Part shown: positions 4,910-43,512 of the stretch, piece by piece | How the letters are laid out: every line of letters starts with the position of its first letter | How positions within the stretch are numbered: the first letter of the stretch is position 1 | From: Bacteroidales bacterium | Lineage (GTDB): Bacteria > Bacteroidota > Bacteroidia > Bacteroidales > UBA7960 | DNA: 64,000 nt | Assembly: GCA_012521995.1 (NCBI GenBank) | Contig: JAAYLH010000009.1 | Location: 38,411 to 102,410, forward strand | Direction of reading: 5' to 3' | Program-made: the position numbers and the translations under genes | The notes under the pieces: model-generated | What the model saw: the letters and a program-made list of their open reading frames with translations, nothing else | Told to the model about the DNA's origin: nothing | The model's database searches: none

Positions 4910-5485
4910 ATGAACCGAAATAAAGCACTGATCCTGTTCTCGTTTTTCGTGGTTTTTGCCCTGACTTCCTGCAACCTTTTCCCCGCAAAGGCCCAGGACA
5001 CCGCCTTTAAAACCCTCTACGACTTTAAGGTCGAGGATATTTATGGCGATGAATTTGACCTGGCCGGCCTAAAGGGCAAAAAGGTGATGGTGGTAAACAC
5101 CGCCTCCAAATGCGGCCTGACCCCACAGTATGAAGAGCTCGAGAAACTTTACCAGGAATACCGCGAAAGCGGCTTTGTCATCATTGGCTTTCCTGCCAAT
5201 AATTTTATGAACCAGGAGCCCGGCTCGAATGAAGACATCATCGAGTTTTGCACAGCAAACTACGGGGTCTCCTTCCCTATGATGGGTAAAATTTCAGTGA
5301 AAGGCAAAGACATGGCCCCCATCTACCAGTGGCTGACCCAAAAAAGCCGGAATGGAGTGCTTGATTCTGAAGTCACCTGGAACTTCCAGAAATTCCTCAT
5401 CGACGAGCAGGGAAAGCTGGTGGATGTCCTTCAGCCCCGCGAAAAGCCCTATTCCGAAAAGGTCATTGCCTGGCTGAATAACTGA
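4910..5485 (+). CDS. Glutathione peroxidase family (Cys-type), predicted lipoprotein
   Basis: VNTASKCGLTPQY, GFPANNF..QEPG and WNFQKFLID motifs; N-terminal lipobox LTSC. Confidence 0.92.
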   Translation: MNRNKALILFSFFVVFALTSCNLFPAKAQDTAFKTLYDFKVEDIYGDEFDLAGLKGKKVMVVNTASKCGLTPQYEELEKLYQEYRESGFVIIGFPANNFMNQEPGSNEDIIEFCTANYGVSFPMMGKISVKGKDMAPIYQWLTQKSRNGVLDSEVTWNFQKFLIDEQGKLVDVLQPREKPYSEKVIAWLNN

Positions 5486-5558
5486 TTTTTTATTAAAGGA
5501 CTTATTTCTTTTCAAATCCTTTTTTATGTGTTAATAAGGAATTAGGAAGGAAAATGTT

Positions 5559-5590
5559 ACGGAACAAGGTATGGCCCTGTTCCGTTTTTT
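5559..5590 (+). terminator. Rho-independent terminator after gpx
   Basis: acggaaca...tgttccgt stem followed by a T-run. Confidence 0.7.
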
Positions 5591-5656
5591 ATTGGCGATT
5601 TCCGTCTTTCTTAGAAAACACCTCACTGAACTCCTACAGGGACAGTTTGAAGCCAA

Positions 5657-5761
5657 AGTTTAGACGTAGTTCAGACGTAGTTAACACGTAGTTAAGACGT
5701 AGTTCAGACGTGTACACACGTCTGAACTACGTCTTATTTACGTCTTATTTACGTGTTAGTT
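5657..5761. repeat. 11-bp-period palindromic tandem element (copy 1)
   Basis: 5 units of AGTTHASACGT, spacer GTACAC, then 4 inverted units. Perfect 21-bp inverted repeat at 5693-5713/5716-5736. Confidence 0.92.
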
Positions 5762-5997
5762 TCGGTTTATATTTAATTCTGATTTGGTAAGGGAGGGTCT
5801 CGCTGAGGCTAAAAAGAACGAAAGGGTTTGCCAGGAATGAACAGAAGGTGACAGGCAGGGTGGGTCGGGCATATTTGATTTTTGGCCGATTTTCGGGCCT
5901 CGCGAGAAACCATGTCAGGTTTTGTTTTTTGCAAAAGACAATAATTGGGTATTATTTTTACCTTTGTTGGTTGTACCATTAGCATTGCAATTGAACT

Positions 5998-8900
5998 ATG
6001 CAACCACCCCAATACACAGGCTTCGAAAGCGGTCATCAGCTGGTATTTGCCATTACCGACAATCCCCCGCTGGGCTTGATGATCGAGCCATTTGCCGTGA
6101 AGGTCATCGGGGATGGTCAGTTCAGCTATGAATTTCACAGGCTCAGCCCGCTTACGGCAGGCGATTTTTTTCACAATATGAGCCAGCCTTACAAGCAGCT
6201 GCTGAAGGTGTATGGGCAGGTGACTGAAGACACCCTGCTGAAACGATTCAACAAAGACCATAAGAAGCCCTCCCTGTTTTTTGATCAACTTACGGCTGAT
6301 TTTATTGCCGAACACTTGCGGCCGCTGTTCGATAAGACTATGGCCGAAATGGCCGACCTGCTTTTTAAGCACGGGATAGCCCTGCATTACAAGGGTCTTA
6401 AGGACGAGCGGATTGTGGAGAAGCAGATTTGGGTGGCTCCCGGAAAGGTGGAACCCGTTTTCTTTTTTGAACGCTCAGAAAACGGGATACGCTACCGTTT
6501 GGAACTCATACACGAGGGCAGGGAACTTTCCCTGAAAGGGGAAGACACCCGAATGCTGGGAACAAAGCCTTGCCTTCTGAAGGTGGATGACAGGGTTTTT
6601 CGCTTCGATAAGGAATGGGACGGGAAAAAACTCTCCCCTTTCTTTACGCGCGACGAGATTATGGTGCCCAAAACTTCTGAGAAGGCTTATTTTCAGAAGT
6701 TCGTGCTCGATGCCATTCGTCATCATAAGGTCAAGGCCGTAGGTTTTGAGATCTGTGGCCGTGAGGAATCACCGCGTCCTGTTTTTAAACTGGAGCAGAA
6801 CTGGCAAAACCATTGGACCCTGCAGCTTTCCTTTGCTTATGGTGAGGTGGTTTTCCCCTTCAGCGAGGAGCAGCAGGCCAAGGTAGAGATGAAGCAGGAG
6901 GGCGATCGTTTTATTTTTATTAAAGTGGAGCGCGATGTCGCCTTCGAGCAGGAATGGGCAGGGCGCCTGAAGATGCTGGGCCTTATCAACAAGGGCGGCG
7001 AGGGATTTTACCTATGGTATCCTGCAAAGAAAACACTTGAATCGCCCGATGAGCCCGTGATGGCAGGGCTTTACGACTACCTCGACTGGCTTGCCGCCCA
7101 GCGTGAAGCTCTCGGCCTCCACAATATTGAAGTGCAGCAGGACGCGGGTTCGGGTGGTTTTTTTTTAGGCCGACCCCAGGTAAGCCTTGAAGTTACCGAC
7201 CGCAACGACTGGTTCGACCTTTACGGGACAGTGAGTTTTGGCCCCCACCGCATTCCTTTTCTCAGGTTAAAAAATCATATCTTGCAGGGCATTCGCGAGT
7301 TCAGCCTTCCCGATGGGTCTACGGGACTGATCCCTCTCGAATGGTTTGAGAAATACCAGGACGTGATGAAGTTTGCCCAAGGCAAGGGAAACACCCTGCA
7401 ACTGAAACGGCACCACTTCACCCTGCTTGGGAAACTGAAAGAGGCCAGCACGCCTGTGAAAGGACTTGATGAGGCGATGCGCGATTTTTCGCCTCCCATG
7501 CTTCCTCAGGGTATTGATGCCCAGTTGCGACCCTATCAGTTGCAGGGCTTCCAATGGATGAGCTTCCTGCATCAGCATCACCTGGGGGGATGTCTTGCTG
7601 ATGACATGGGCCTGGGCAAAACCCTGCAGACCCTTGTTATGCTGGTTTATGCCCACCGTGAACCGGGAGGGAAGAACAAACCTGCCTCAACGAACGAAGA
7701 AGCCCGTGAAAAGTCCGAAGAGACTCAGTTGTCGCTTTTTGAGGCCGAGGCCGGGGAAGCACCCCCAGCACCCCTTGGCACTTCCTTGTTGGTGATGCCG
7801 CTTTCGTTGATCCATAACTGGATGCGCGAGATCGGCCGTTTTACCCCGCAGCTCAGGGCGTTGCAACATACAGGCCCTGCACGCAGCACCAGCAGCCGCG
7901 CGTTCCTGCCCTACGACCTGGTGCTTACCACTTACGGAACCGTGCGCAATGACATTGATATGCTGGAAGGCTTTCATTTCAACTATGTGGTGCTTGATGA
8001 AAGCCAGATCATCAAAAACGCCGAGTCAAAGATCTTTAATGCCATCAAGAAACTGAAGGCAGGCCATCGGTTGGTGCTGACGGGGACTCCCGTAGAAAAC
8101 TCGCTGACCGATCTGTGGGCGCAGTTTTCTTTCCTCAACCCGGGGCTTTTGGGTAACCTGAATTACTTCCGTGAAGAGTTTGTGGTGCCTGTTGAGAAAA
8201 GCAACGACCTTCGCAAGCAACAGAAGCTACATTCGCTGATCGAGCCCTTTATCCTGAGGCGCACCAAGTCGGAGGTGGCAAAAGAGCTGCCCGAACTCAC
8301 CGAGCTGGTTCGCTATTGCGAAATGTCGGAAGAGCATCGCAAATTTTATGAAGCGAAGAAATCACAGATCCGCAACCTTATCCTTGAGCAGGTGGAGAAG
8401 CAGGGCATGGAACGCTCGCGCTTCTTTATTTTAAGCAGCCTGATGCGGCTGCGTCTTATGGCTAACCACCCCTTGATGGTGGATCCTGAATATGCTTATG
8501 ACTCAGGAAAATTTATCGAGGTGAGAGAGAACATTGGGAAGGTGCTTTCCGAGGGGCATAAGGTCCTTATCTTCTCACAGTTTGTGAAACACCTGAACAT
8601 TTACAGGAAATACCTTGACAGCCTGGACTTGCCCTATAACCTGCTGACGGGGCAGATGCCGGAGAAGGAGCGGGGAAGGCTGATCAACGATTTCCAGCAA
8701 GATCCTGAAAAGCGGTTATTCCTGATCTCGCTGAAGGCAGGTGGCTTGGGGCTTAATCTCACTGGGGCAGATTATGTGTTCCTGCTCGACCCTTGGTGGA
8801 ACCCTGCTGTGGAGAAGCAGGCCATCAACCGCGCCCACCGTATTGGTCAGAAAAAGAATGTGTTCGTGTATAAATTTATTACACGAGATACCGTAGAGGA

Positions 8901-9012
8901 GAAGATCCTCAGCCTGCAGCAGCGCAAATCGGCCCTGGCAGGCCTGCTGATCGACCAGAACAATCCCCTTAAAAACCTTGGACTGGATGAGATCAGCGAC
9001 CTGATTACCTAA
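5998..9012 (+). CDS. SNF2-family helicase/ATPase
   Basis: LRPYQ, LADDMGLGKT, DESQ, LTGTPVEN, ILRRTK, SLKAGGLGLNL and QAINRAHRIGQ motifs. Confidence 0.95.
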   Translation: MQPPQYTGFESGHQLVFAITDNPPLGLMIEPFAVKVIGDGQFSYEFHRLSPLTAGDFFHNMSQPYKQLLKVYGQVTEDTLLKRFNKDHKKPSLFFDQLTADFIAEHLRPLFDKTMAEMADLLFKHGIALHYKGLKDERIVEKQIWVAPGKVEPVFFFERSENGIRYRLELIHEGRELSLKGEDTRMLGTKPCLLKVDDRVFRFDKEWDGKKLSPFFTRDEIMVPKTSEKAYFQKFVLDAIRHHKVKAVGFEICGREESPRPVFKLEQNWQNHWTLQLSFAYGEVVFPFSEEQQAKVEMKQEGDRFIFIKVERDVAFEQEWAGRLKMLGLINKGGEGFYLWYPAKKTLESPDEPVMAGLYDYLDWLAAQREALGLHNIEVQQDAGSGGFFLGRPQVSLEVTDRNDWFDLYGTVSFGPHRIPFLRLKNHILQGIREFSLPDGSTGLIPLEWFEKYQDVMKFAQGKGNTLQLKRHHFTLLGKLKEASTPVKGLDEAMRDFSPPMLPQGIDAQLRPYQLQGFQWMSFLHQHHLGGCLADDMGLGKTLQTLVMLVYAHREPGGKNKPASTNEEAREKSEETQLSLFEAEAGEAPPAPLGTSLLVMPLSLIHNWMREIGRFTPQLRALQHTGPARSTSSRAFLPYDLVLTTYGTVRNDIDMLEGFHFNYVVLDESQIIKNAESKIFNAIKKLKAGHRLVLTGTPVENSLTDLWAQFSFLNPGLLGNLNYFREEFVVPVEKSNDLRKQQKLHSLIEPFILRRTKSEVAKELPELTELVRYCEMSEEHRKFYEAKKSQIRNLILEQVEKQGMERSRFFILSSLMRLRLMANHPLMVDPEYAYDSGKFIEVRENIGKVLSEGHKVLIFSQFVKHLNIYRKYLDSLDLPYNLLTGQMPEKERGRLINDFQQDPEKRLFLISLKAGGLGLNLTGADYVFLLDPWWNPAVEKQAINRAHRIGQKKNVFVYKFITRDTVEEKILSLQQRKSALAGLLIDQNNPLKNLGLDEISDLIT

Positions 9013-10297: not shown

Positions 10298-11836
10298 TCA
10301 GGGCAGGAGAGGTGGTTTACGGTGATGGGTGGCCTGTTCGTAGGCATAGGTAAGCCTGATCAGGGTAGGCTCGGCGTACATCCTTCCGAGGAACTGAATG
10401 CCTGCAGGGAGACCCTGGCCGCTGTATCCCATAGGAACAGAAAAGGCAGGCTGGCCGGTATGCGGGGCAATGATCTGGCTGTTGTCGCCCTTGTATTCCT
10501 CACGGAAACGGGCAATGTGCGCGGGCGGGTAATTCCAGGAGGGATACACAATAGCATCCAGTTGCAGGGCATCCATCGTTTGTTCGATGGCTTCTCTGAA
10601 GGCAATGCTACGGGAATCCTGATATACATCAGGGCATTCCGTCACGGAGTTTTGGCCCCTTCCGCGGTGATTCTTGAAATAATCGAGGGAGCCCGCGGCA
10701 TACTCTGAGTTGGTTCCAATGCGAATGATGTCTTCCAGTTTAGCTAGGGTGTCGCGCCTTACCCAGGTCTGGAGGTAGTCTTCCACATCCTTCCGGAAAT
10801 CGTCGCACCACTGGTTTTGGCGCAAATCGTCAAAGCCCGGAATCTCAACCGAGTCAATGATCACAGCGCCCTGTGCTTCCATTTCGTCAAGGGCCTGCCT
10901 GAAGAGGGAGCGGATTTCGGGATGCACGTCATCATAGCTTAAGGAGCCCAGCACCCCGATGCGTGCACCCTGAAGGCCTTCATGATCCAGGTATTGCAGG
11001 TAGTTTTCCGAAACCTTTCCTTTTCCATGTCTGGTGATGGGATCAAGGGGGTCGAAGCCGGCCATCACTTCCAATACCCTGGTGGCATCCTCCACACTGC
11101 GGCACATTGGACCTACTATATCGTTGCGCAGGTATAGGGGAATAATGGCGCTGCGGCTGATCAGTCCTTGGGTGGTGCGAAAACCAACTAAAGCGCAGTG
11201 TGAGGCCGGCCCGCGGATGGAGTTGCCCGTATCGGTGCCCAGGCCGATCACGGCCAGGTTTGCTGCCACAGCGGCGGCGGTGCCGCCGCTGGAACCCGCG
11301 GGGACAAATTCCAGCCCGTAGGGGTTACGGGTGATGCCTGCCGTCGAACTCTCCGTGTGCATCGGGCTGAACGCCCATTCGGCCATATTTGATTTGGCCA
11401 GGATGATGGCCCCTGCCTCTTTTAGTTTCTTGATGATGAAGGCATCGTCTTCGGGAATGAAATCTTTTAAGGCCAGTGCCCCTGCTGTGGTGGGCATCCC
11501 AGCGGTATTGATGTTGTCCTTCACAATAAGCGGGATGCCATGCAAGGGCCTTAAAATCCCTGTTGCTTTATATTCGCGGTCGAGCGCTTCAGCCACTGCA
11601 AGGGCATCGGGCTTGATGAAAGTCAGGGCGTTCAGGGTATCGTTCCATTGTGTAATGCTTTCCAGGTAAGCCTCCACCAACTGCACTGAGGTAAGCCTGT
11701 CTTCCTCAAAAGCCCGGTGGATCTGGGCAATACTTAGCTCGGCAATGTTCATTGGTTCATTTGTTTTTGCGTTTCTGCAGCTGTAGGTCCCTGCCAGAAA
11801 CAATAGGGCAAGGAGGAAGGAAATGATTCTCTTCAT
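10298..11836 (-). CDS. Amidase-signature family enzyme, predicted lipoprotein
   Basis: LHGIPLIVKDNI, GSSGG and GTDTGNSIRGP motifs; lipobox TYSC. Confidence 0.9.
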   Translation of the reverse strand: MKRIISFLLALLFLAGTYSCRNAKTNEPMNIAELSIAQIHRAFEEDRLTSVQLVEAYLESITQWNDTLNALTFIKPDALAVAEALDREYKATGILRPLHGIPLIVKDNINTAGMPTTAGALALKDFIPEDDAFIIKKLKEAGAIILAKSNMAEWAFSPMHTESSTAGITRNPYGLEFVPAGSSGGTAAAVAANLAVIGLGTDTGNSIRGPASHCALVGFRTTQGLISRSAIIPLYLRNDIVGPMCRSVEDATRVLEVMAGFDPLDPITRHGKGKVSENYLQYLDHEGLQGARIGVLGSLSYDDVHPEIRSLFRQALDEMEAQGAVIIDSVEIPGFDDLRQNQWCDDFRKDVEDYLQTWVRRDTLAKLEDIIRIGTNSEYAAGSLDYFKNHRGRGQNSVTECPDVYQDSRSIAFREAIEQTMDALQLDAIVYPSWNYPPAHIARFREEYKGDNSQIIAPHTGQPAFSVPMGYSGQGLPAGIQFLGRMYAEPTLIRLTYAYEQATHHRKPPLLP

Positions 11837-14513: not shown

Positions 14514-15734
14514 TTATTTCTTGCATCTTGTTTTTCGGATAAAAAAGAGAGACATCGAAACGATAGCCAGTAACAAAAGGAAGAAAGCCTGATACCCGAA
14601 TTTTTCTATTGCCAGCCCTCCCACAAGGGGGAATAGGGCGGGCAAAATATTGCCGGCGCCTGCAAAGCCCGTATACACTGCTCTTTTTTCCTTGTTGCTG
14701 ATCTCAAGCAGCACCCCGTTCATGCTGATAGTGTAAAGAGAAAAAATAATTCCTCCGGCAATAAAGATATATTTTAGGGAAACATCGCTCTTTATCAGCA
14801 TGGTGTTGATGATCAGCAGAATGGAAAGGATGGCATTCAGGTATAGGATTGAGTTGTATTTAATCTTCTTTGATGTAAGAAAAACAAGGAGGCTGACCGA
14901 TACCACCCCTATAACCTTGAAAATAAGAAAGTTTCCTGTGTCGCTGCTCTGGGTGTTCACCGTGTCCTTGGCATAAAGCATCACAAAAGGCAGGAACGAA
15001 ATCATTAAGCCCTGGGTATTGATGAAGCCGAGGAAATAGGCAAGCCTTGGATTAAGCGAAAGCTCAGATCTAAGCAATCGGAAAAACGTTTTGATGCCAC
15101 TAATTTTCAATGCAGAGGGTTCCGTTTCCCTGATTTTCCAGAAACCGCCCGAGGCGATCAGCAAGAGGCTTCCCCCGATGAAGAACATTGCGGCGAAGTT
15201 TACCGGATATGCAAAGGAAGTCAGTGCTTTCTTTGCCAGGAAAGCTGATATCAGCACAACACTGCCGGCCACCAATTGCTTGACCGAGAAAAAAGTCTTG
15301 CGCTTGGTCTCGTCCACGCTCTTTCCCAGGATGTCCGTGTAGCTGATGTTTGTAAAAGCCCCTGCAAAAGAGAAGGTAGAGATGAAAAGGAAAATGAACC
15401 ACAAAATATTTCCAGAAAAATTTGACCTGAGGTAGAACAGGATTACCCCCAGGGCAAACAGGGACAATATCCGCGTGTTGATGCCCAGCAGCAGGAATTT
15501 TTTCTTAAAGGGCCGGTTGCTTACATAAGGGGCAAACAATAATTGCGAAAAACTGGCACCTCCCAGCATGATGGCTGTCATGATGCCGATATGCACGGCA
15601 CCGCCGCCGGATTCAATAATCATGGCAGGTATGATGGTATCTACATCCATGAAATTCTGGGCAAGGGCCAGGAAGCCTGCATGCCAGAGAAAAGCATGAA
15701 AGTTATGGGTGGAAATCTTTGGCGTTAAGGTCAT
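14514..15734 (-). CDS. MFS transporter
   Basis: 406 aa with about 12 hydrophobic segments. Confidence 0.8.
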   Translation of the reverse strand: MTLTPKISTHNFHAFLWHAGFLALAQNFMDVDTIIPAMIIESGGGAVHIGIMTAIMLGGASFSQLLFAPYVSNRPFKKKFLLLGINTRILSLFALGVILFYLRSNFSGNILWFIFLFISTFSFAGAFTNISYTDILGKSVDETKRKTFFSVKQLVAGSVVLISAFLAKKALTSFAYPVNFAAMFFIGGSLLLIASGGFWKIRETEPSALKISGIKTFFRLLRSELSLNPRLAYFLGFINTQGLMISFLPFVMLYAKDTVNTQSSDTGNFLIFKVIGVVSVSLLVFLTSKKIKYNSILYLNAILSILLIINTMLIKSDVSLKYIFIAGGIIFSLYTISMNGVLLEISNKEKRAVYTGFAGAGNILPALFPLVGGLAIEKFGYQAFFLLLLAIVSMSLFFIRKTRCKK

Positions 15735-16148: not shown

Positions 16149-16220
16149 AGTTTAGACGGTGTATATTCGGTTTAAAACGAATATACACCGTCTAAACACC
16201 GTTTAAACCCCTGATTTGGT
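16149..16220. repeat. 11-bp-period palindromic element (copy 2)
   Basis: agtttagacgg tgtatattcgg TTTAAA acgaatataca ccgtctaaaca ccgtttaaacc. Perfect 20-bp inverted repeat at 16150-16169/16178-16197. Confidence 0.88.
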
Positions 16221-16397: not shown

Positions 16398-17558
16398 ATG
16401 AAGAGATTGTATTCTATCAGCTTTTTGCTAATCCTGGCCCTGAGTTTTGGGGGTTGCGCGTTATTACAGCCCTTGCAGAAGAGCCAGATCATCTCGGTAT
16501 TTCACCTGATCGAAACGGCCAAGTACAATGAGGCCAAAGGGGTTGTCGACGAGATGATCAACAACGAGGAATCGGCCGAATGGGCCAGGGTGTGGTATGC
16601 CCGTGGCTTGCTTAGCCAAACAGCTTATCGCGAAGGGATCAAAAAGAACGACAAGAAGTTGTATGAACTTTATCCCGAACAGTTGTATGTGGCCTTCGAC
16701 TCGTATGAGCGCGCCGTGGAGCTGGACAAAAGGGGGCGGCTTGAGAAACAGCTGAAACCCAATTATGTGTTGCTTGTCAACGACCTGCAGAGCCTTGGTG
16801 AGCGTGAGTTTAAGGCGGGGAAGTACCCGGAAGCCCTCAAGGCTTTTGAACATGCGCTTTGCATCACCGACCTTGTGGATCAGTCAAAGGATCAGGACAC
16901 GGCCCTGGTCTACAATGCTGCCTTGGCTGCCTATGAGGGCGATAACTGGGCAAAGGCTAAGGAGCACCTGGGGCGCCTTCACAGCATCAGGTATTCGGTC
17001 AATGTGACCCACCTCTTTTTCAATGCCCAGTTGAATGCCGGGGATACCCTTGCGGCTCAGAGGGCTCTTGAGGAAGGCATTGATTTCTTTGAAGAAGATG
17101 AGATCCTGGTTTTGCTTCTGGCCGATTTACAGGTCAGGCTGGGTGAGCCCGACCAGGCCATCGGGGTGTTGGATGCCGCCATTGCCCGCTCGCCAGAAAA
17201 TGCCGTTTATCACAATACCAAGGGCCTGATCTATCAGAAAAATGAGGCTTACCAAGATGCTATCACCGCCTATGAACAGGCCATAGCCCTTGACCCCGAT
17301 GACCTGATGGCCTTCCTGAATATCGCCACCAGCTATTACAACATCGGGGTGGAGATTGAAGAAGGCACCTTGACGATGACCAATATATACCTTGTGCAGC
17401 GCGAGAAGGAAAAGTCGGCCCTTGCCCTGGAGTCGGCTGTTGAATGGCTCGATAAGGTGTATGAAAAGGAGCCCACAGACCCTGAAGTCCGCAATCGCAT
17501 GTATGAGCTTTACCGTGTGTTGCGCATCAACGAAAAGGTCATTTCCCTGGAAGACTAG
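16398..17558 (+). CDS. Tetratricopeptide-repeat protein, likely lipoprotein
   Basis: Signal peptide ending FGGC and several TPR patterns (e.g. AITAYEQAIALDP). Confidence 0.82.
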   Translation: MKRLYSISFLLILALSFGGCALLQPLQKSQIISVFHLIETAKYNEAKGVVDEMINNEESAEWARVWYARGLLSQTAYREGIKKNDKKLYELYPEQLYVAFDSYERAVELDKRGRLEKQLKPNYVLLVNDLQSLGEREFKAGKYPEALKAFEHALCITDLVDQSKDQDTALVYNAALAAYEGDNWAKAKEHLGRLHSIRYSVNVTHLFFNAQLNAGDTLAAQRALEEGIDFFEEDEILVLLLADLQVRLGEPDQAIGVLDAAIARSPENAVYHNTKGLIYQKNEAYQDAITAYEQAIALDPDDLMAFLNIATSYYNIGVEIEEGTLTMTNIYLVQREKEKSALALESAVEWLDKVYEKEPTDPEVRNRMYELYRVLRINEKVISLED

Positions 17559-26644: not shown

Positions 26645-26698
26645 GTTTAACGGGTTGTTGGTTAAAGCTTTCAAATGGTCTCCCTAAAAATACAAAAG

Positions 26699-27077
26699 AA
26701 AAGGCAGGTCTGTAAGCCGGGTTCTGTATTCCGCCGAAGCGGACTCCCTGTCATTTGTCTGGGCTGTGGCTTGCGCAACAGCTCTAACGGCCTACCCTCC
26801 GGGATTGGGCGAGCTACCCTCAAGCCCCGGTATATTTGGCCTTTCAACGCATAAGGTTTACCCCCCGCTACAGTCACCTGTAGCGGTCGTGAGCTCTTAC
26901 CTCACGTTTTCACCCTTACCTGACCCGCAATGCGGAATGCAGGCGGTTGTTTTCTGTGGCCCTTTCTCGCAGCCCGCCTGGGGCGGACTGGCTTCCCGTT
27001 AGGAAGTATGCTGCTCTGTGTTGCCCGGACTTTCCTCCTGCTGCCTGGGCAGCAAGCGACAAGACAACCTGCCTTTT
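26699..27077 (-). ncRNA. rnpB: RNase P RNA (bacterial type A)
   Basis: Minus strand has GAGGAAAGTCCGGGC, GGCCACAGAAAAC, AGGGTGAAAACGTGAGGTAAGAGCTCAC and ACAGAACCCGGCTTA. Terminal P1 helix AAAAGGCAGGT/ACCTGCCTTTT. Confidence 0.96.
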
Positions 27078-41584: not shown

Positions 41585-42727
41585 ATGGAGTGGCTCAGGG
41601 AGGTCCCGCTTACGTATGATTGGATTCTGCTTTATGCCTTTGGCCTCACAGCCCTCGTCCAGCTGTTCTACTACTGGTTTTTCTTTAGCCGCTTGGCTTT
41701 CAAAAAACCACGCAAGCCCTATGACTCCACTCCGCCCGTCACCGTCATTATCTGCGCCAAAAACGAATACCTCAATCTGGAGGAAAACCTGCCCGCCTTC
41801 CTCGAGCAGGATTATCCTGACTACGAGGTGCTGGTGATCAACGATGGCTCAGACGACGATACCGAGCTGTTGCTGCACGAATACAAGGGCCGCTTCCCGC
41901 GCCTGAGGGTGGTGCAGTTGCAGAAAAACGTCAATTTCTTTTCGGGCAAGAAGTTCCCCCTGGCCATTGGCATCAAGGAAGCCAGGCATAATATGCTGTT
42001 GCTTACCGATGCCGACTGCCGCCCTGACAGCCCCCATTGGATTGCCTCCATGGTGTCGGGCTTCGACCCCGCCACGGAAATCGTGCTGGGCTACGGGCCT
42101 TACCGCAAAAGCAAGGGACTGCTCAATCAGCTGATTCGCTACGACAGTTTTTTCATTGCCCTTCAATACCTTTCCTATGCCCTGGCAGGACAGGCCTATA
42201 TGGGCGTGGGACGCAACCTGGCTTACCGGCGCGAAGTGTTTTACAGGGTGAAGGGCTTCACCTCCCACTATAAGGTCGCATCGGGCGATGATGACCTGTT
42301 TGTCAACCAAGCCGCCACCCCTCGTAATGTCCGCATCGAAGTCCGCCCCGAAGCACATACCCTCTCCCTTCCAAAGGAGACCCTAGGAAAATGGTTTCAC
42401 CAGAAACGCCGCCATATGACCACGGGGAAATACTACAGGCCAAAATTCAAATTCCTGCTGGGGCTCTTCAGCCTTTCACAGGCTTTGTTTTATCTCCTTT
42501 TTATCATTATCCTTGCCTGCTGCTTTTTTTCAACAATTGCCCTGATTGCCGCGGCAATCTTCGCCCTTCGTATGATAAGTATGTTAATAATTTTTTTCAG
42601 GGCAGGAAAAAAGTTAAATCAAAGCCGATTATCTTTATATTCGCCGCTGTTTGATATTATGATGCTGGCGCTGAACCTGATTTTTTCTTTTTCAGCCTTG
42701 TTTTACTACAATAACCGATGGAAGTGA
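41585..42727 (+). CDS. GT2 family membrane glycosyltransferase
   Basis: VIICAKNE, VINDGSDD, TDADC, GDDD and QKRRH motifs; ATG at 41585. Confidence 0.9.
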   Translation: MEWLREVPLTYDWILLYAFGLTALVQLFYYWFFFSRLAFKKPRKPYDSTPPVTVIICAKNEYLNLEENLPAFLEQDYPDYEVLVINDGSDDDTELLLHEYKGRFPRLRVVQLQKNVNFFSGKKFPLAIGIKEARHNMLLLTDADCRPDSPHWIASMVSGFDPATEIVLGYGPYRKSKGLLNQLIRYDSFFIALQYLSYALAGQAYMGVGRNLAYRREVFYRVKGFTSHYKVASGDDDLFVNQAATPRNVRIEVRPEAHTLSLPKETLGKWFHQKRRHMTTGKYYRPKFKFLLGLFSLSQALFYLLFIIILACCFFSTIALIAAAIFALRMISMLIIFFRAGKKLNQSRLSLYSPLFDIMMLALNLIFSFSALFYYNNRWK

Positions 42728-43323
42728 AGACCAAGCTTACCGAAAAAGGACAGAAAGACTACCTGCTGGTGAGGGAGGCTGTGGACAAAGGCGACCAACG
42801 GGCCTATTCCGAGTTGATGGATCGTTACAAGGACACCATTTATTTCATGCTGCTCAAAATGGCCGGTAATACCGAGGACGCTGAAGACCTCACCGTCGAA
42901 GCTTTCGGAAAGGCTTTCAAAAACCTCGAACAATACACCCCCGATTACGCCTTCAGCACCTGGCTTTTTAAGATCGCTTCAAACAACTGTATCGACTTCC
43001 TGCGCAAGAAGAAAAAAAACGTGCTCAATTACGAGGCCAACGAAGAACTCAACGAGTCGTATAAGGCCAGCAACCTGCCGTCTGACACCGGCGATCCTGA
43101 AGAGAAACTGTTGCGCAGCCAGAAGGTGAAGATGATGCGGGAGGTGGTCGACGGTCTCAAGCCCCGCTACCGGCAGCTTATCGAACTGCGCTACTTCCAG
43201 GAACTGAGCTACGAGGAAATCTGCGAAGAGCTGAACCTCCCCCTGGGCACCGTCAAGGCTCAGCTCTTTCGCGCACGCGAGTTCCTCTACAATATCCTCA
43301 AGAACTCGAGGGATAACTTCTGA
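42718..43323 (+). CDS. ECF-type sigma-70 factor
   Basis: AEDL..EAF, FSTWLFKIA.N and SYEEI..L..PLGTVK..LFRAR motifs. Confidence 0.93.
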   Translation: MEVKTKLTEKGQKDYLLVREAVDKGDQRAYSELMDRYKDTIYFMLLKMAGNTEDAEDLTVEAFGKAFKNLEQYTPDYAFSTWLFKIASNNCIDFLRKKKKNVLNYEANEELNESYKASNLPSDTGDPEEKLLRSQKVKMMREVVDGLKPRYRQLIELRYFQELSYEEICEELNLPLGTVKAQLFRAREFLYNILKNSRDNF

Positions 43324-43407: not shown

Positions 43408-43512
43408 ATCCCCATCGTTCTTGGGCTGTTCTTACACCTTTTAAAGGGGGAGTTAAAACAGCCTAGGAAAGGACTTGGTACGGACTTGGTACGGACTTGG
43501 TAGGGAGAAAAC
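43408..43512. repeat. 11-bp-period repeat element (degenerate copy 3) with GGACTTGGTA x3
   Basis: Tandem ggacttggtac ggacttggtac ggacttggtag at 43471-43503. Imperfect inverted repeat at 43418-43430/43457-43469. Confidence 0.75.

Follow-up and report, generated by a model that had tools for sequence, protein, structure and literature searches.

A dispersed family of inverted 11-bp repeat arrays in a Bacteroidales genome and its association with DUF6266 genes

Pho boxes, heptad arrays and met boxes, the respective sites of PhoB, omega and MetJ, are built of short tandem units in direct or inverted order, which are bound cooperatively and combine strong with weak sites. REPIN-RAYT systems, for their part, comprise several repeat families per genome, and each family has a single-copy cognate gene with repeats of its own type on its flanks. 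The element described here is a palindromic array of 11-bp units located at positions 5657-5772 of a 64,000-nt stretch of DNA (the window), which corresponds to positions 38411-102410 of contig C93 (JAAYLH010000009.1) in the metagenome-assembled genome (MAG) of a Bacteroidales bacterium (GCA_012521995.1, here G000; 3.26 Mb, 140 contigs, 49.5% G+C). Arrays of the same plan stand in front of genes for proteins of the Pfam family DUF6266, and this association carries the interpretation proposed below.

Three systems from the literature serve for comparison. R1 parC/ParR possesses two sets of five 11-bp iterons, with one binder per unit, which overlap the promoter of the binder's own operon and act both as operator and as platform (PMC2241845). 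Repetitive extragenic palindromic (REP) units are stem-loops of 20-40 bp with an unpaired GTAG or CGTC tag (PMC3733652). BrickBuilt, a Porphyromonas gingivalis MITE (miniature inverted-repeat transposable element), is always intergenic, consists of short head-to-tail units and displays promoter activity (PMC4596501).

Anatomy and number of the arrays

The strong arm of the window array (5657-5711, + strand) consists of five head-to-tail units, AGTTnAnACGT (Tandem Repeats Finder, TRF: period 11, 5.0 copies, 88% matches), with the variant AGTTAACACGT in third position. It is followed by the centre, GTACAC (5712-5717), in which purines and pyrimidines alternate, and by an AT-richer weak arm (5718-5772, +) formed by four inverted units beginning ACGT (5718-5761) and a degenerate fifth (5762-5772). 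Around this 6-nt centre the inner arms are perfectly paired for 19 bp, or for 21 bp when GT and AC of the centre are counted. On the left, flank alignments and the consensus of all copies reveal, at 5631-5656 (+), the sequence ctcctacaggg, a weak CCnnTTnCAGG-like motif, and tttgaagccaa, a degenerate sixth unit; on the right, positions 5773-5793 (+) retain a remnant of a conserved GAATnTGA-like motif (ttctgatttgg). The initial annotation had described five units, a 6-bp spacer, four inverted units and a 21-bp repeat, all of which are confirmed. Its starting point at 5657 also stands, while its end at 5788 is too exact, the structured part of the array ending near 5772-5793, and its exclusion of a CRISPR agrees with the fact that the units abut head to tail without spacers.

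Across the whole genome, runs of at least three ACGT words occur 65 times at period 11, once at period 6 and never at any of periods 7-10 and 12-19, and a two-unit pattern gives 287 matches against 8 for its reversed control. Merged, the ACGT runs make up 47 loci, which hold 397 of the 4592 ACGT sites in the genome (8.6%), where ACGT is a scarce word. A lag-11 autocorrelation scan adds ten period-11 loci with other units, GGTCGAGATAC, CCGTATAAACT and TACGGTTAAAG among them, mostly arranged in inverted arms. The window array is therefore one of about fifty dispersed copies, far beyond chance, as the initial annotation had supposed when it spoke of a dispersed, apparently undescribed element and proposed a scan for period-11 autocorrelation with inverted symmetry. 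A literature search by unit sequence returned adapter and primer papers only, because the inner unit equals part of a sequencing adapter: positions 5701-5713, the innermost unit plus GT, match exactly 13 nt of Illumina's TruSeq read-2 adapter, a coincidence through which trimmers could clip such reads. A role of ACGT as a restriction-avoidance signal was considered and rejected, the word having an observed/expected ratio of 0.84 and not being among the most avoided.

Oriented on the better-kept arm, all 47 copies follow one common plan, which opens with a degenerate sixth unit (TTCAnnnTCnn) and five strong ones, continues across a short centre into four to five weaker and AT-richer inverted units, and closes with a short right flank, tGAATnTGAAAcaGG. 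Two types can be distinguished. Type A, with 27 copies, has the unit AGTTCAGACGT and, in 24 of them, a 6-nt centre that mostly alternates purine and pyrimidine; type B, with 20 copies, has the unit ACCTTAGACGT and invariably (20/20) a 7-nt centre, so that all ACGT cores of both its arms share one continuous 11-bp phase. Polarity is kept across copies, and unit variants are position-specific, AGTTAACACGT occupying position 3 in 15 of the 27 type-A copies, the window copy included, which argues that copies descend from one another and do not result from local slippage. Identity between copies reaches 89% in the strong arm and 67-71% in the weak arm, a difference that would fit high- and low-affinity sites.

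DUF6266 genes and their upstream arrays

Three contigs of the genome, C25, C31 and C78, carry array copies with paralogous right flanks that encode DUF6266 proteins of 211-213 aa, the start codon lying 63 nt from the weak arm; the three modules are homologous over exactly the array, the promoter and the open reading frame (ORF), about 798 bp. The window array is a type-A orphan, whose gene-linked counterparts are those on C31 and C78. In total, G000 has nine DUF6266 matches. Upstream DNA is available for seven, and in each of these a palindromic period-11 array directly precedes a conserved ATTTGnTTAnnTTTG stretch that lies ahead of the start codon. This stretch we take to be a Bacteroidetes -7 promoter element (consensus TAnnTTTG, with TTTG at -33); the weak arm of the gene-linked copies would then overlap the predicted DUF6266 promoter.

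The units differ from one paralogue to the next while the layout persists. Within G000, type A occurs at C31 and C78, type B at C25, GGTCGAGATAC at C51, AGTTAATACGG at C93:19298, CCGTAGTTTAA at C122 and yet another unit at C127. The DUF6266 arrays of other genomes are made of unrelated units (GGTAGACAAAA, TAAGCGTCTTA, TTCAACCAATG, GGTTGAGCCGG, TTTAACCGGTC and TTTGATGCGAA), again with the 11-bp period and the inverted arrangement. These genes belong to a divergent "MAY" clade, the proteins of which start with MAY, MAF, MAK and the like; 32 of its genes, from eight genomes, were counted. A lag-11 score of at least 23/33 within 250 nt upstream was found for 24 of the 32 genes against 5 of 400 control ORFs drawn from contigs bearing arrays, and a palindrome score of at least 25/40 for 25 of the 32 against 5 of the 400. 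The eight genes below the lag threshold have mostly short 2+2 arrays or an array farther upstream.

Distribution among species points in the same direction. Among 40 relatives, which are species representatives and, as kin, not independent, the ACGT-core pattern is present in 4 of 10 congeners; of 8 further genera sampled in the family 1 has it, and of 16 further families of the order, each represented by one genome, none does. The reversed control gave zero everywhere. Counting G000, six of 41 genomes are thus array-positive, and DUF6266 is encoded in all six, against 8 of the 35 array-negative genomes; these eight have canonical-clade genes or arrays with non-ACGT units. The array architecture also appears in several named Bacteroidales MAGs. 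Furthermore, each multi-copy orphan type in G000 has a gene-linked copy in the same genome.

DUF6266 (PF19781) is a family whose name was not met in a literature search. Five paralogues of G000 score 36.9-65.8 bits, above the gathering threshold of 23.4 bits, whereas canonical members reach 295-330 bits, so that the former are divergent members; a profile of the clade retrieved 2250 clusters (50% identity) at E <= 0.001. The AlphaFold model of the protein is confident (pLDDT 94.6). Its N-domain combines a sheet of three strands with three helices and a basic loop, which reads RSRPSGKRRP in the C31 protein, and its C-domain is FN3-like (Z 9.0, root-mean-square deviation 2.3, 85 residues aligned to 1fnh; Foldseek best E 3.3e-3). 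Median net charges are +10 for the N-domain, which is positive in every one of the 127 aligned members, and -3 for the C-domain. Near-invariant residues are mainly glycines and aromatics, and no nuclease or recombinase signature was recognised in a reading of the alignment. The family gave no matches to PHROGs or, by tblastn, to plasmids and phages; its best viral fold match is an uncharacterised protein. A homodimer prediction scored 0.05, the mark being 0.42.

The arrays are regarded here, with moderate confidence, as cooperative, one-per-helical-turn binding arrays for the cognate DUF6266 protein. Binding by this protein is proposed because the layout is conserved despite the turnover of units, the N-domain is basic and the orphan types match resident paralogues. 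According to this proposal, the founding copies would be the promoter-proximal regions of DUF6266-family genes, from which the window array at 5657-5772 would derive as an orphan. One protomer or dimer, with its basic N-domain and FN3-like C-domain, would occupy each 11-bp unit on a single face of the helix; binding would start on the strong arm and extend cooperatively along the weak arm. In a gene-linked copy, where the weak arm would cover the promoter, the DUF6266 protein may regulate its own gene. Orphans would have kept the binding arms and lost the promoter and the ORF, and they would sit in inserts of 0.45-0.54 kb between genes, shielded by inward-facing terminators. The initial annotation had also offered a protein-binding array with one site per turn among its options; the conserved layout and the DUF6266 link support this part of it, the act of binding being itself inferred.

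A bolder extension is put forward tentatively. MAY-clade DUF6266 proteins might constitute a new class of sequence-specific DNA-binding proteins that polymerise on DNA in 11-bp register by means of their basic N-domain and FN3-like domain, in a gene-repeat partnership like that of REPIN-RAYT without a transposase fold. Terminator-insulated orphans between convergent genes might then serve as chromosomal platforms (insulators, roadblocks, or cohesion/segregation sites), and specificity might diversify by co-evolution of paralogues and arrays.

Several observations weigh against the binding-array interpretation. For types A and B there are about 15 orphans per gene-linked copy, for which an operator model alone is insufficient. 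Since a gene and its upstream region are co-inherited, a match between lineage and array type is expected under linkage alone. The canonical DUF6266 clade, with proteins that start MGKIN, has no array in any of five genes, and neither has one distant relative among nine metagenome loci. When the N-domain alone was submitted to a fold search, the best match had a Z of 4.9 and no DNA-binding fold was among the matches listed, which does not exclude one; DUF6266 had no matches among Protein Data Bank (PDB) sequences. Finally, at two loci where both genomes have long spacers, the array of G000 and that of G001, its closest relative, occupy the same position and belong to different types, a situation that needs insertion hot spots or type switching.

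Other features of these loci deserve mention. The G001 arrays at those two places (L010:1930-2320 and L174, that is G001:C94:111170-111840) are period-11 and inverted, of types AGTTAATACGG/CCGTATAAACT and TACGACCATGG. At the C31 locus, G001 retains the array and promoter but, of the ORF, only its first eight bases (800 bp replaced by 341 bp), and so at least one orphan arose through gene loss in place; typical orphans share just the array and 10-20 nt with gene-linked copies, and most are consequently not simple gene-loss relics. A search for related loci gave 11, most from the same or a near-identical organism. The DUF6266 genes stand solitary among unrelated housekeeping genes (symporter, aldehyde dehydrogenase, dnaN, gltX and the like). 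Two tRNA-Leu genes (gag, cag; L082:4281-4488) follow 220 nt downstream of the C31 gene, and giant surface proteins adjoin two of the modules (L081:4986-10430, - strand; L080:2-5536, - strand), with SprB repeats and a type IX secretion system (T9SS) sorting tail, and with Ig-like/CarboxypepD_reg repeats. A canonical DUF6266 gene comes directly after a DUF6943 gene in two of three loci examined (L161:3354-5224 and L162:1041-2260) and is followed in one by a phage-holin-like gene, a neighbourhood that hints at a prophage origin of the family.

Turnover of the copies and other explanations

All 47 copies lie outside ORFs of at least 100 aa, as judged by crude longest-ORF calling: 17 between convergent genes, 24 between tandem and 4 between divergent ones, with 2 at contig ends. 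Where the 3' end of a neighbouring gene points at the array, its terminator hairpin keeps a remarkably constant distance: among the hairpins found, those on the strong side end 209-228 nt from the array centre in 10 of 21 cases, and those on the weak side begin 169-189 nt from it in 11 of 17. Five copies can be aligned over about 470 bp, from terminator to terminator, and an alignment of 46 copies displays weak conservation across the same span. Motifs of 35-45 nt at +/-170-250 were considered as terminal inverted repeats and rejected, as they are the rho-independent terminators of the neighbours. Terminators of this genus often belong to one hairpin family, GAGGCyGyCTC ... GAGrCrGCCTC with A- and T-runs (L170-L172 and the flanks of the 47 loci).

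Copies are gained and lost among species. The spacer that holds the window array measures 512 bp in G000, about 350 bp in G001 and about 90-130 bp in G004, G006, G009 and G010. At the C119 locus, the 538 bp of G000 correspond to 31-33 bp in G004, G006 and G009, with a single bidirectional terminator between the convergent genes, and to 0 bp in G010; at the C134 and C20 loci G000 is longer than its relatives by about 360-480 bp and about 440 bp, respectively. Orthologous sites in relatives were therefore empty at all four loci examined; the initial annotation had proposed to look for such sites.

This turnover lends weight to the view that the array is a non-autonomous MITE- or REPIN-like element moved by a transposase encoded elsewhere, the DUF6266 genes merely carrying or attracting a copy. 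About 47 dispersed intergenic copies, their patchy occurrence among congeners and other genera, the empty sites, and the weak inverted flank motifs found at about -95 and +80 (CCnTTTTCA on the left, TGAAACAGG on the right) all agree with it. Against it, neither candidate boundary has direct repeats of 6-9 nt more often than is seen with the right flank of another copy (46 copies), so that no target-site duplication of at least 6 bp rises above the control. Nor do the flanks appear to be mutual inverted repeats: from 62 nt outward they share only inverted matches of 9-13 nt, in 10 of 47 copies. No locus of this 140-contig MAG has arms split by a transposase gene, PF01797 being the only transposase family searched. 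The single Y1_Tnp gene in G000 (C20:154-492) lies far from the nearest array on that contig, at 10883, and Y1_Tnp occurs in 34 of 41 relatives irrespective of arrays, a distribution that led to the rejection of a Y1/RAYT link. Moreover, nearest-neighbour copies are just 87-92% identical across both arms, which speaks against a recent burst, and mobility leaves unexplained why the same layout, with unrelated units, stands upstream of each DUF6266 lineage. Mobility by a foreign transposase is on balance rather unlikely. Of the comparison with REP elements and bacterial interspersed mosaic elements (BIMEs) in the initial annotation, the distribution holds (intergenic, at gene 3' ends, patchy among species), while the unit structure does not, and no link with HUH/RAYT genes was found.

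It could also be that the arrays are sites of another host regulator of tandem 10-11 bp sites, such as a winged-helix response regulator, and that the DUF6266 genes are its targets. An 11-bp register is typical of winged-helix-type tandem-site regulators, and direct period-11 ACGT arrays occur upstream of promoter-like motifs in genomes of Odoribacter, Butyricimonas and Ignavibacteria. However, units differ wholly between DUF6266 lineages in one genome, for which many co-varying regulators would be needed, and the DUF6266 ORF is the only gene co-inherited with each array, the neighbours being unrelated housekeeping genes; such a regulator is distinctly unlikely. The arrays in question are direct only: those of Ca. 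Odoribacter faecigallinarum (L028, L046, L052, L053) are followed by a conserved motif with TTGACA-like words, and others were found in Butyricimonas (L035, L059) and in Ignavibacteria MAGs (L042, L043, L050, L055, L058, L062, L064).

The palindromic layout raises the question of whether the element acts through nucleic-acid structure, be it a cruciform or single-stranded hairpin (in recombination, in replication or as a gyrase site) or a long RNA hairpin. As a single strand, the 120-nt core has a strong predicted fold (median -43.7 kcal/mol, z about -6.8 versus shuffles), the inner 19-21 bp of the window copy pair perfectly and the type-A centre alternates purine and pyrimidine. Yet Watson-Crick complementarity between the arms decays outward, from 82% in the innermost pair of units to 54% in the fifth, the weak arm keeps a position-specific consensus of its own, and no arm-arm covariation was detected at variable unit positions, where complementarity within copies is no higher than for shuffled arms of different copies (type A, 0.385 versus 0.392; type B, 0.295 versus 0.285). 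Gene-linked arrays, in addition, lie upstream of the promoter, as judged by the promoter consensus, and hence outside that mRNA. Given the lack of covariation, the inverted layout would reflect the orientation of binding sites and not a selected stem. Selection for a hairpin thus appears unlikely, a structural mode of action is quite improbable, and the cruciform or hairpin option of the initial annotation is weakened. An integron attC site was rejected as well, on account of the missing arm covariation and of the position of the array upstream, and not downstream, of the linked ORF.

That the array is an artefact of Illumina adapter carry-over or repeat mis-assembly is scarcely credible: the 13-nt adapter match and the breakage of Logan contigs within the array (expected of short-read contigs in a repeat) speak for it, but the head and tail motifs of the adapter have 0 matches in the genome, the 47 loci carry unique flanks and position-specific variants, array families are also found in assemblies of five other species and in named MAGs, and the 801-nt stretch around the array is present at 0.99-1.00 of sampled words in 13 DNA runs from 7 studies (digester, compost, manure, bioreactor and others), any of which may be the source.

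Surroundings in the window and comparison with known systems

The window array sits between the glutathione-peroxidase gene gpx (4910-5485) and an SNF2-family helicase gene (5998-9012). The gpx terminator, a hairpin with a T-run (5559-5591, +), lies outside the array: its hairpin (5559-5585; 11-nt arms, 91% complementary, 5-nt loop), at -156 to -129 from the array centre, is separated from the array by 65 nt. It had already been set apart in the initial annotation, and it was given no call by a consensus terminator scan. A TAccTTTG box at 5959-5966, about 30 nt ahead of the SNF2 start codon and kept in five congeners as TAtcTTTG and similar forms, is probably the -7 element of the SNF2 promoter. 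Metatranscriptome contigs of two runs leave the interval of about 5501-5993 without cover, those of a third enter both arms, and none of any run bridges the array. Rfam (gathering threshold) and tRNA scans of the window gave no match at the array and no tRNA anywhere; the sole Rfam match is a bacterial class A RNase P RNA at 26697-27075 (-; 269.7 bits).

Two further period-11 sites of the window had been listed as copies of the same layout. The first, at 16149-16209, is a smaller related array, a near-perfect palindrome of two forward units ending CGG, a TTTAAAA centre and three inverted units starting CCG or CG (TRF: 16185-16208, period 11); its inverted period-11 layout is indeed related, but its size (2+3 units) and its ACGG/CCGT cores differ. 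It looks like the AGTTAATACGG type, which precedes the DUF6266 gene at C93:19298, and it is flanked by genes for a major facilitator superfamily (MFS) transporter (14514-15734, -) and a tetratricopeptide repeat (TPR) protein (16398-17558, +). The second, placed at 43408 as a degenerate copy, proved to be only a direct repeat of an unrelated unit, GGACTTGGTAC, in 3.3 copies at 43471-43506 (+; TRF) with no inverted arm seen, and its membership in the array family is doubtful. It begins 150 nt past a gene for an extracytoplasmic function (ECF) sigma factor (42718-43323).

DUF6266 is a large family without a proposed function, and its link with the arrays offers the first one that can be tested. 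The system provides a protein together with predictions of its site and of about 50 targets in the genome, and types A, B and others can act as natural specificity controls. If the interpretation is true, it would add a novel architecture for DNA binding, a new type of dispersed repeat in the Bacteroidales, where described repeat families are few, and a second case, after REPIN-RAYT, of a gene family that maintains its own genomic repeat population. For annotation, the arrays account for many cases in which MAGs of this group show long intergenic spacers and broken contigs.

Compared with known systems, the arrays differ from the operators of PhoB, omega and MetJ in protein and unit length, and none of these is known to have a large dispersed orphan population. 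The closest geometrical parallel is R1 parC, since both have 5 plus about 5 units of 11 bp, and the array abuts the promoter at all seven DUF6266 genes of G000 with upstream DNA. In R1 parC, however, the iterons are all direct and flank a 39-bp promoter core (PMC2241845), whereas the arrays have inverted sets separated by 6-7 bp, with the promoter at the weak arm's outer end. ParR is a ribbon-helix-helix protein, and the adjoining DUF6266 protein, with its basic N-domain and FN3-like C-domain, is not a known ParR of this kind; in contrast to R1 par, the DUF6266 genes have no ParM-like neighbour, and the arrays are chromosomal with dozens of orphan sites. BrickBuilt is the nearest described Bacteroidales repeat, with all-direct units of 23 nt, leader and tail subunits and small inverted ends; the part of its account drawn on describes neither inverted unit arms nor a linked protein gene (PMC4596501). 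Like REP and REPIN elements, the arrays are palindromic repeats scattered between genes, at gene 3' ends, with a patchy occurrence from one species to the next, although their 11-bp units have no self-complementarity outside the ACGT core. The cognate gene does not encode a Y1/HUH transposase, and the array stands on one side of it only; but, as in REPIN-RAYT systems, paralogous genes each lie beside their own repeat type, and orphans of the same type are dispersed through the genome.

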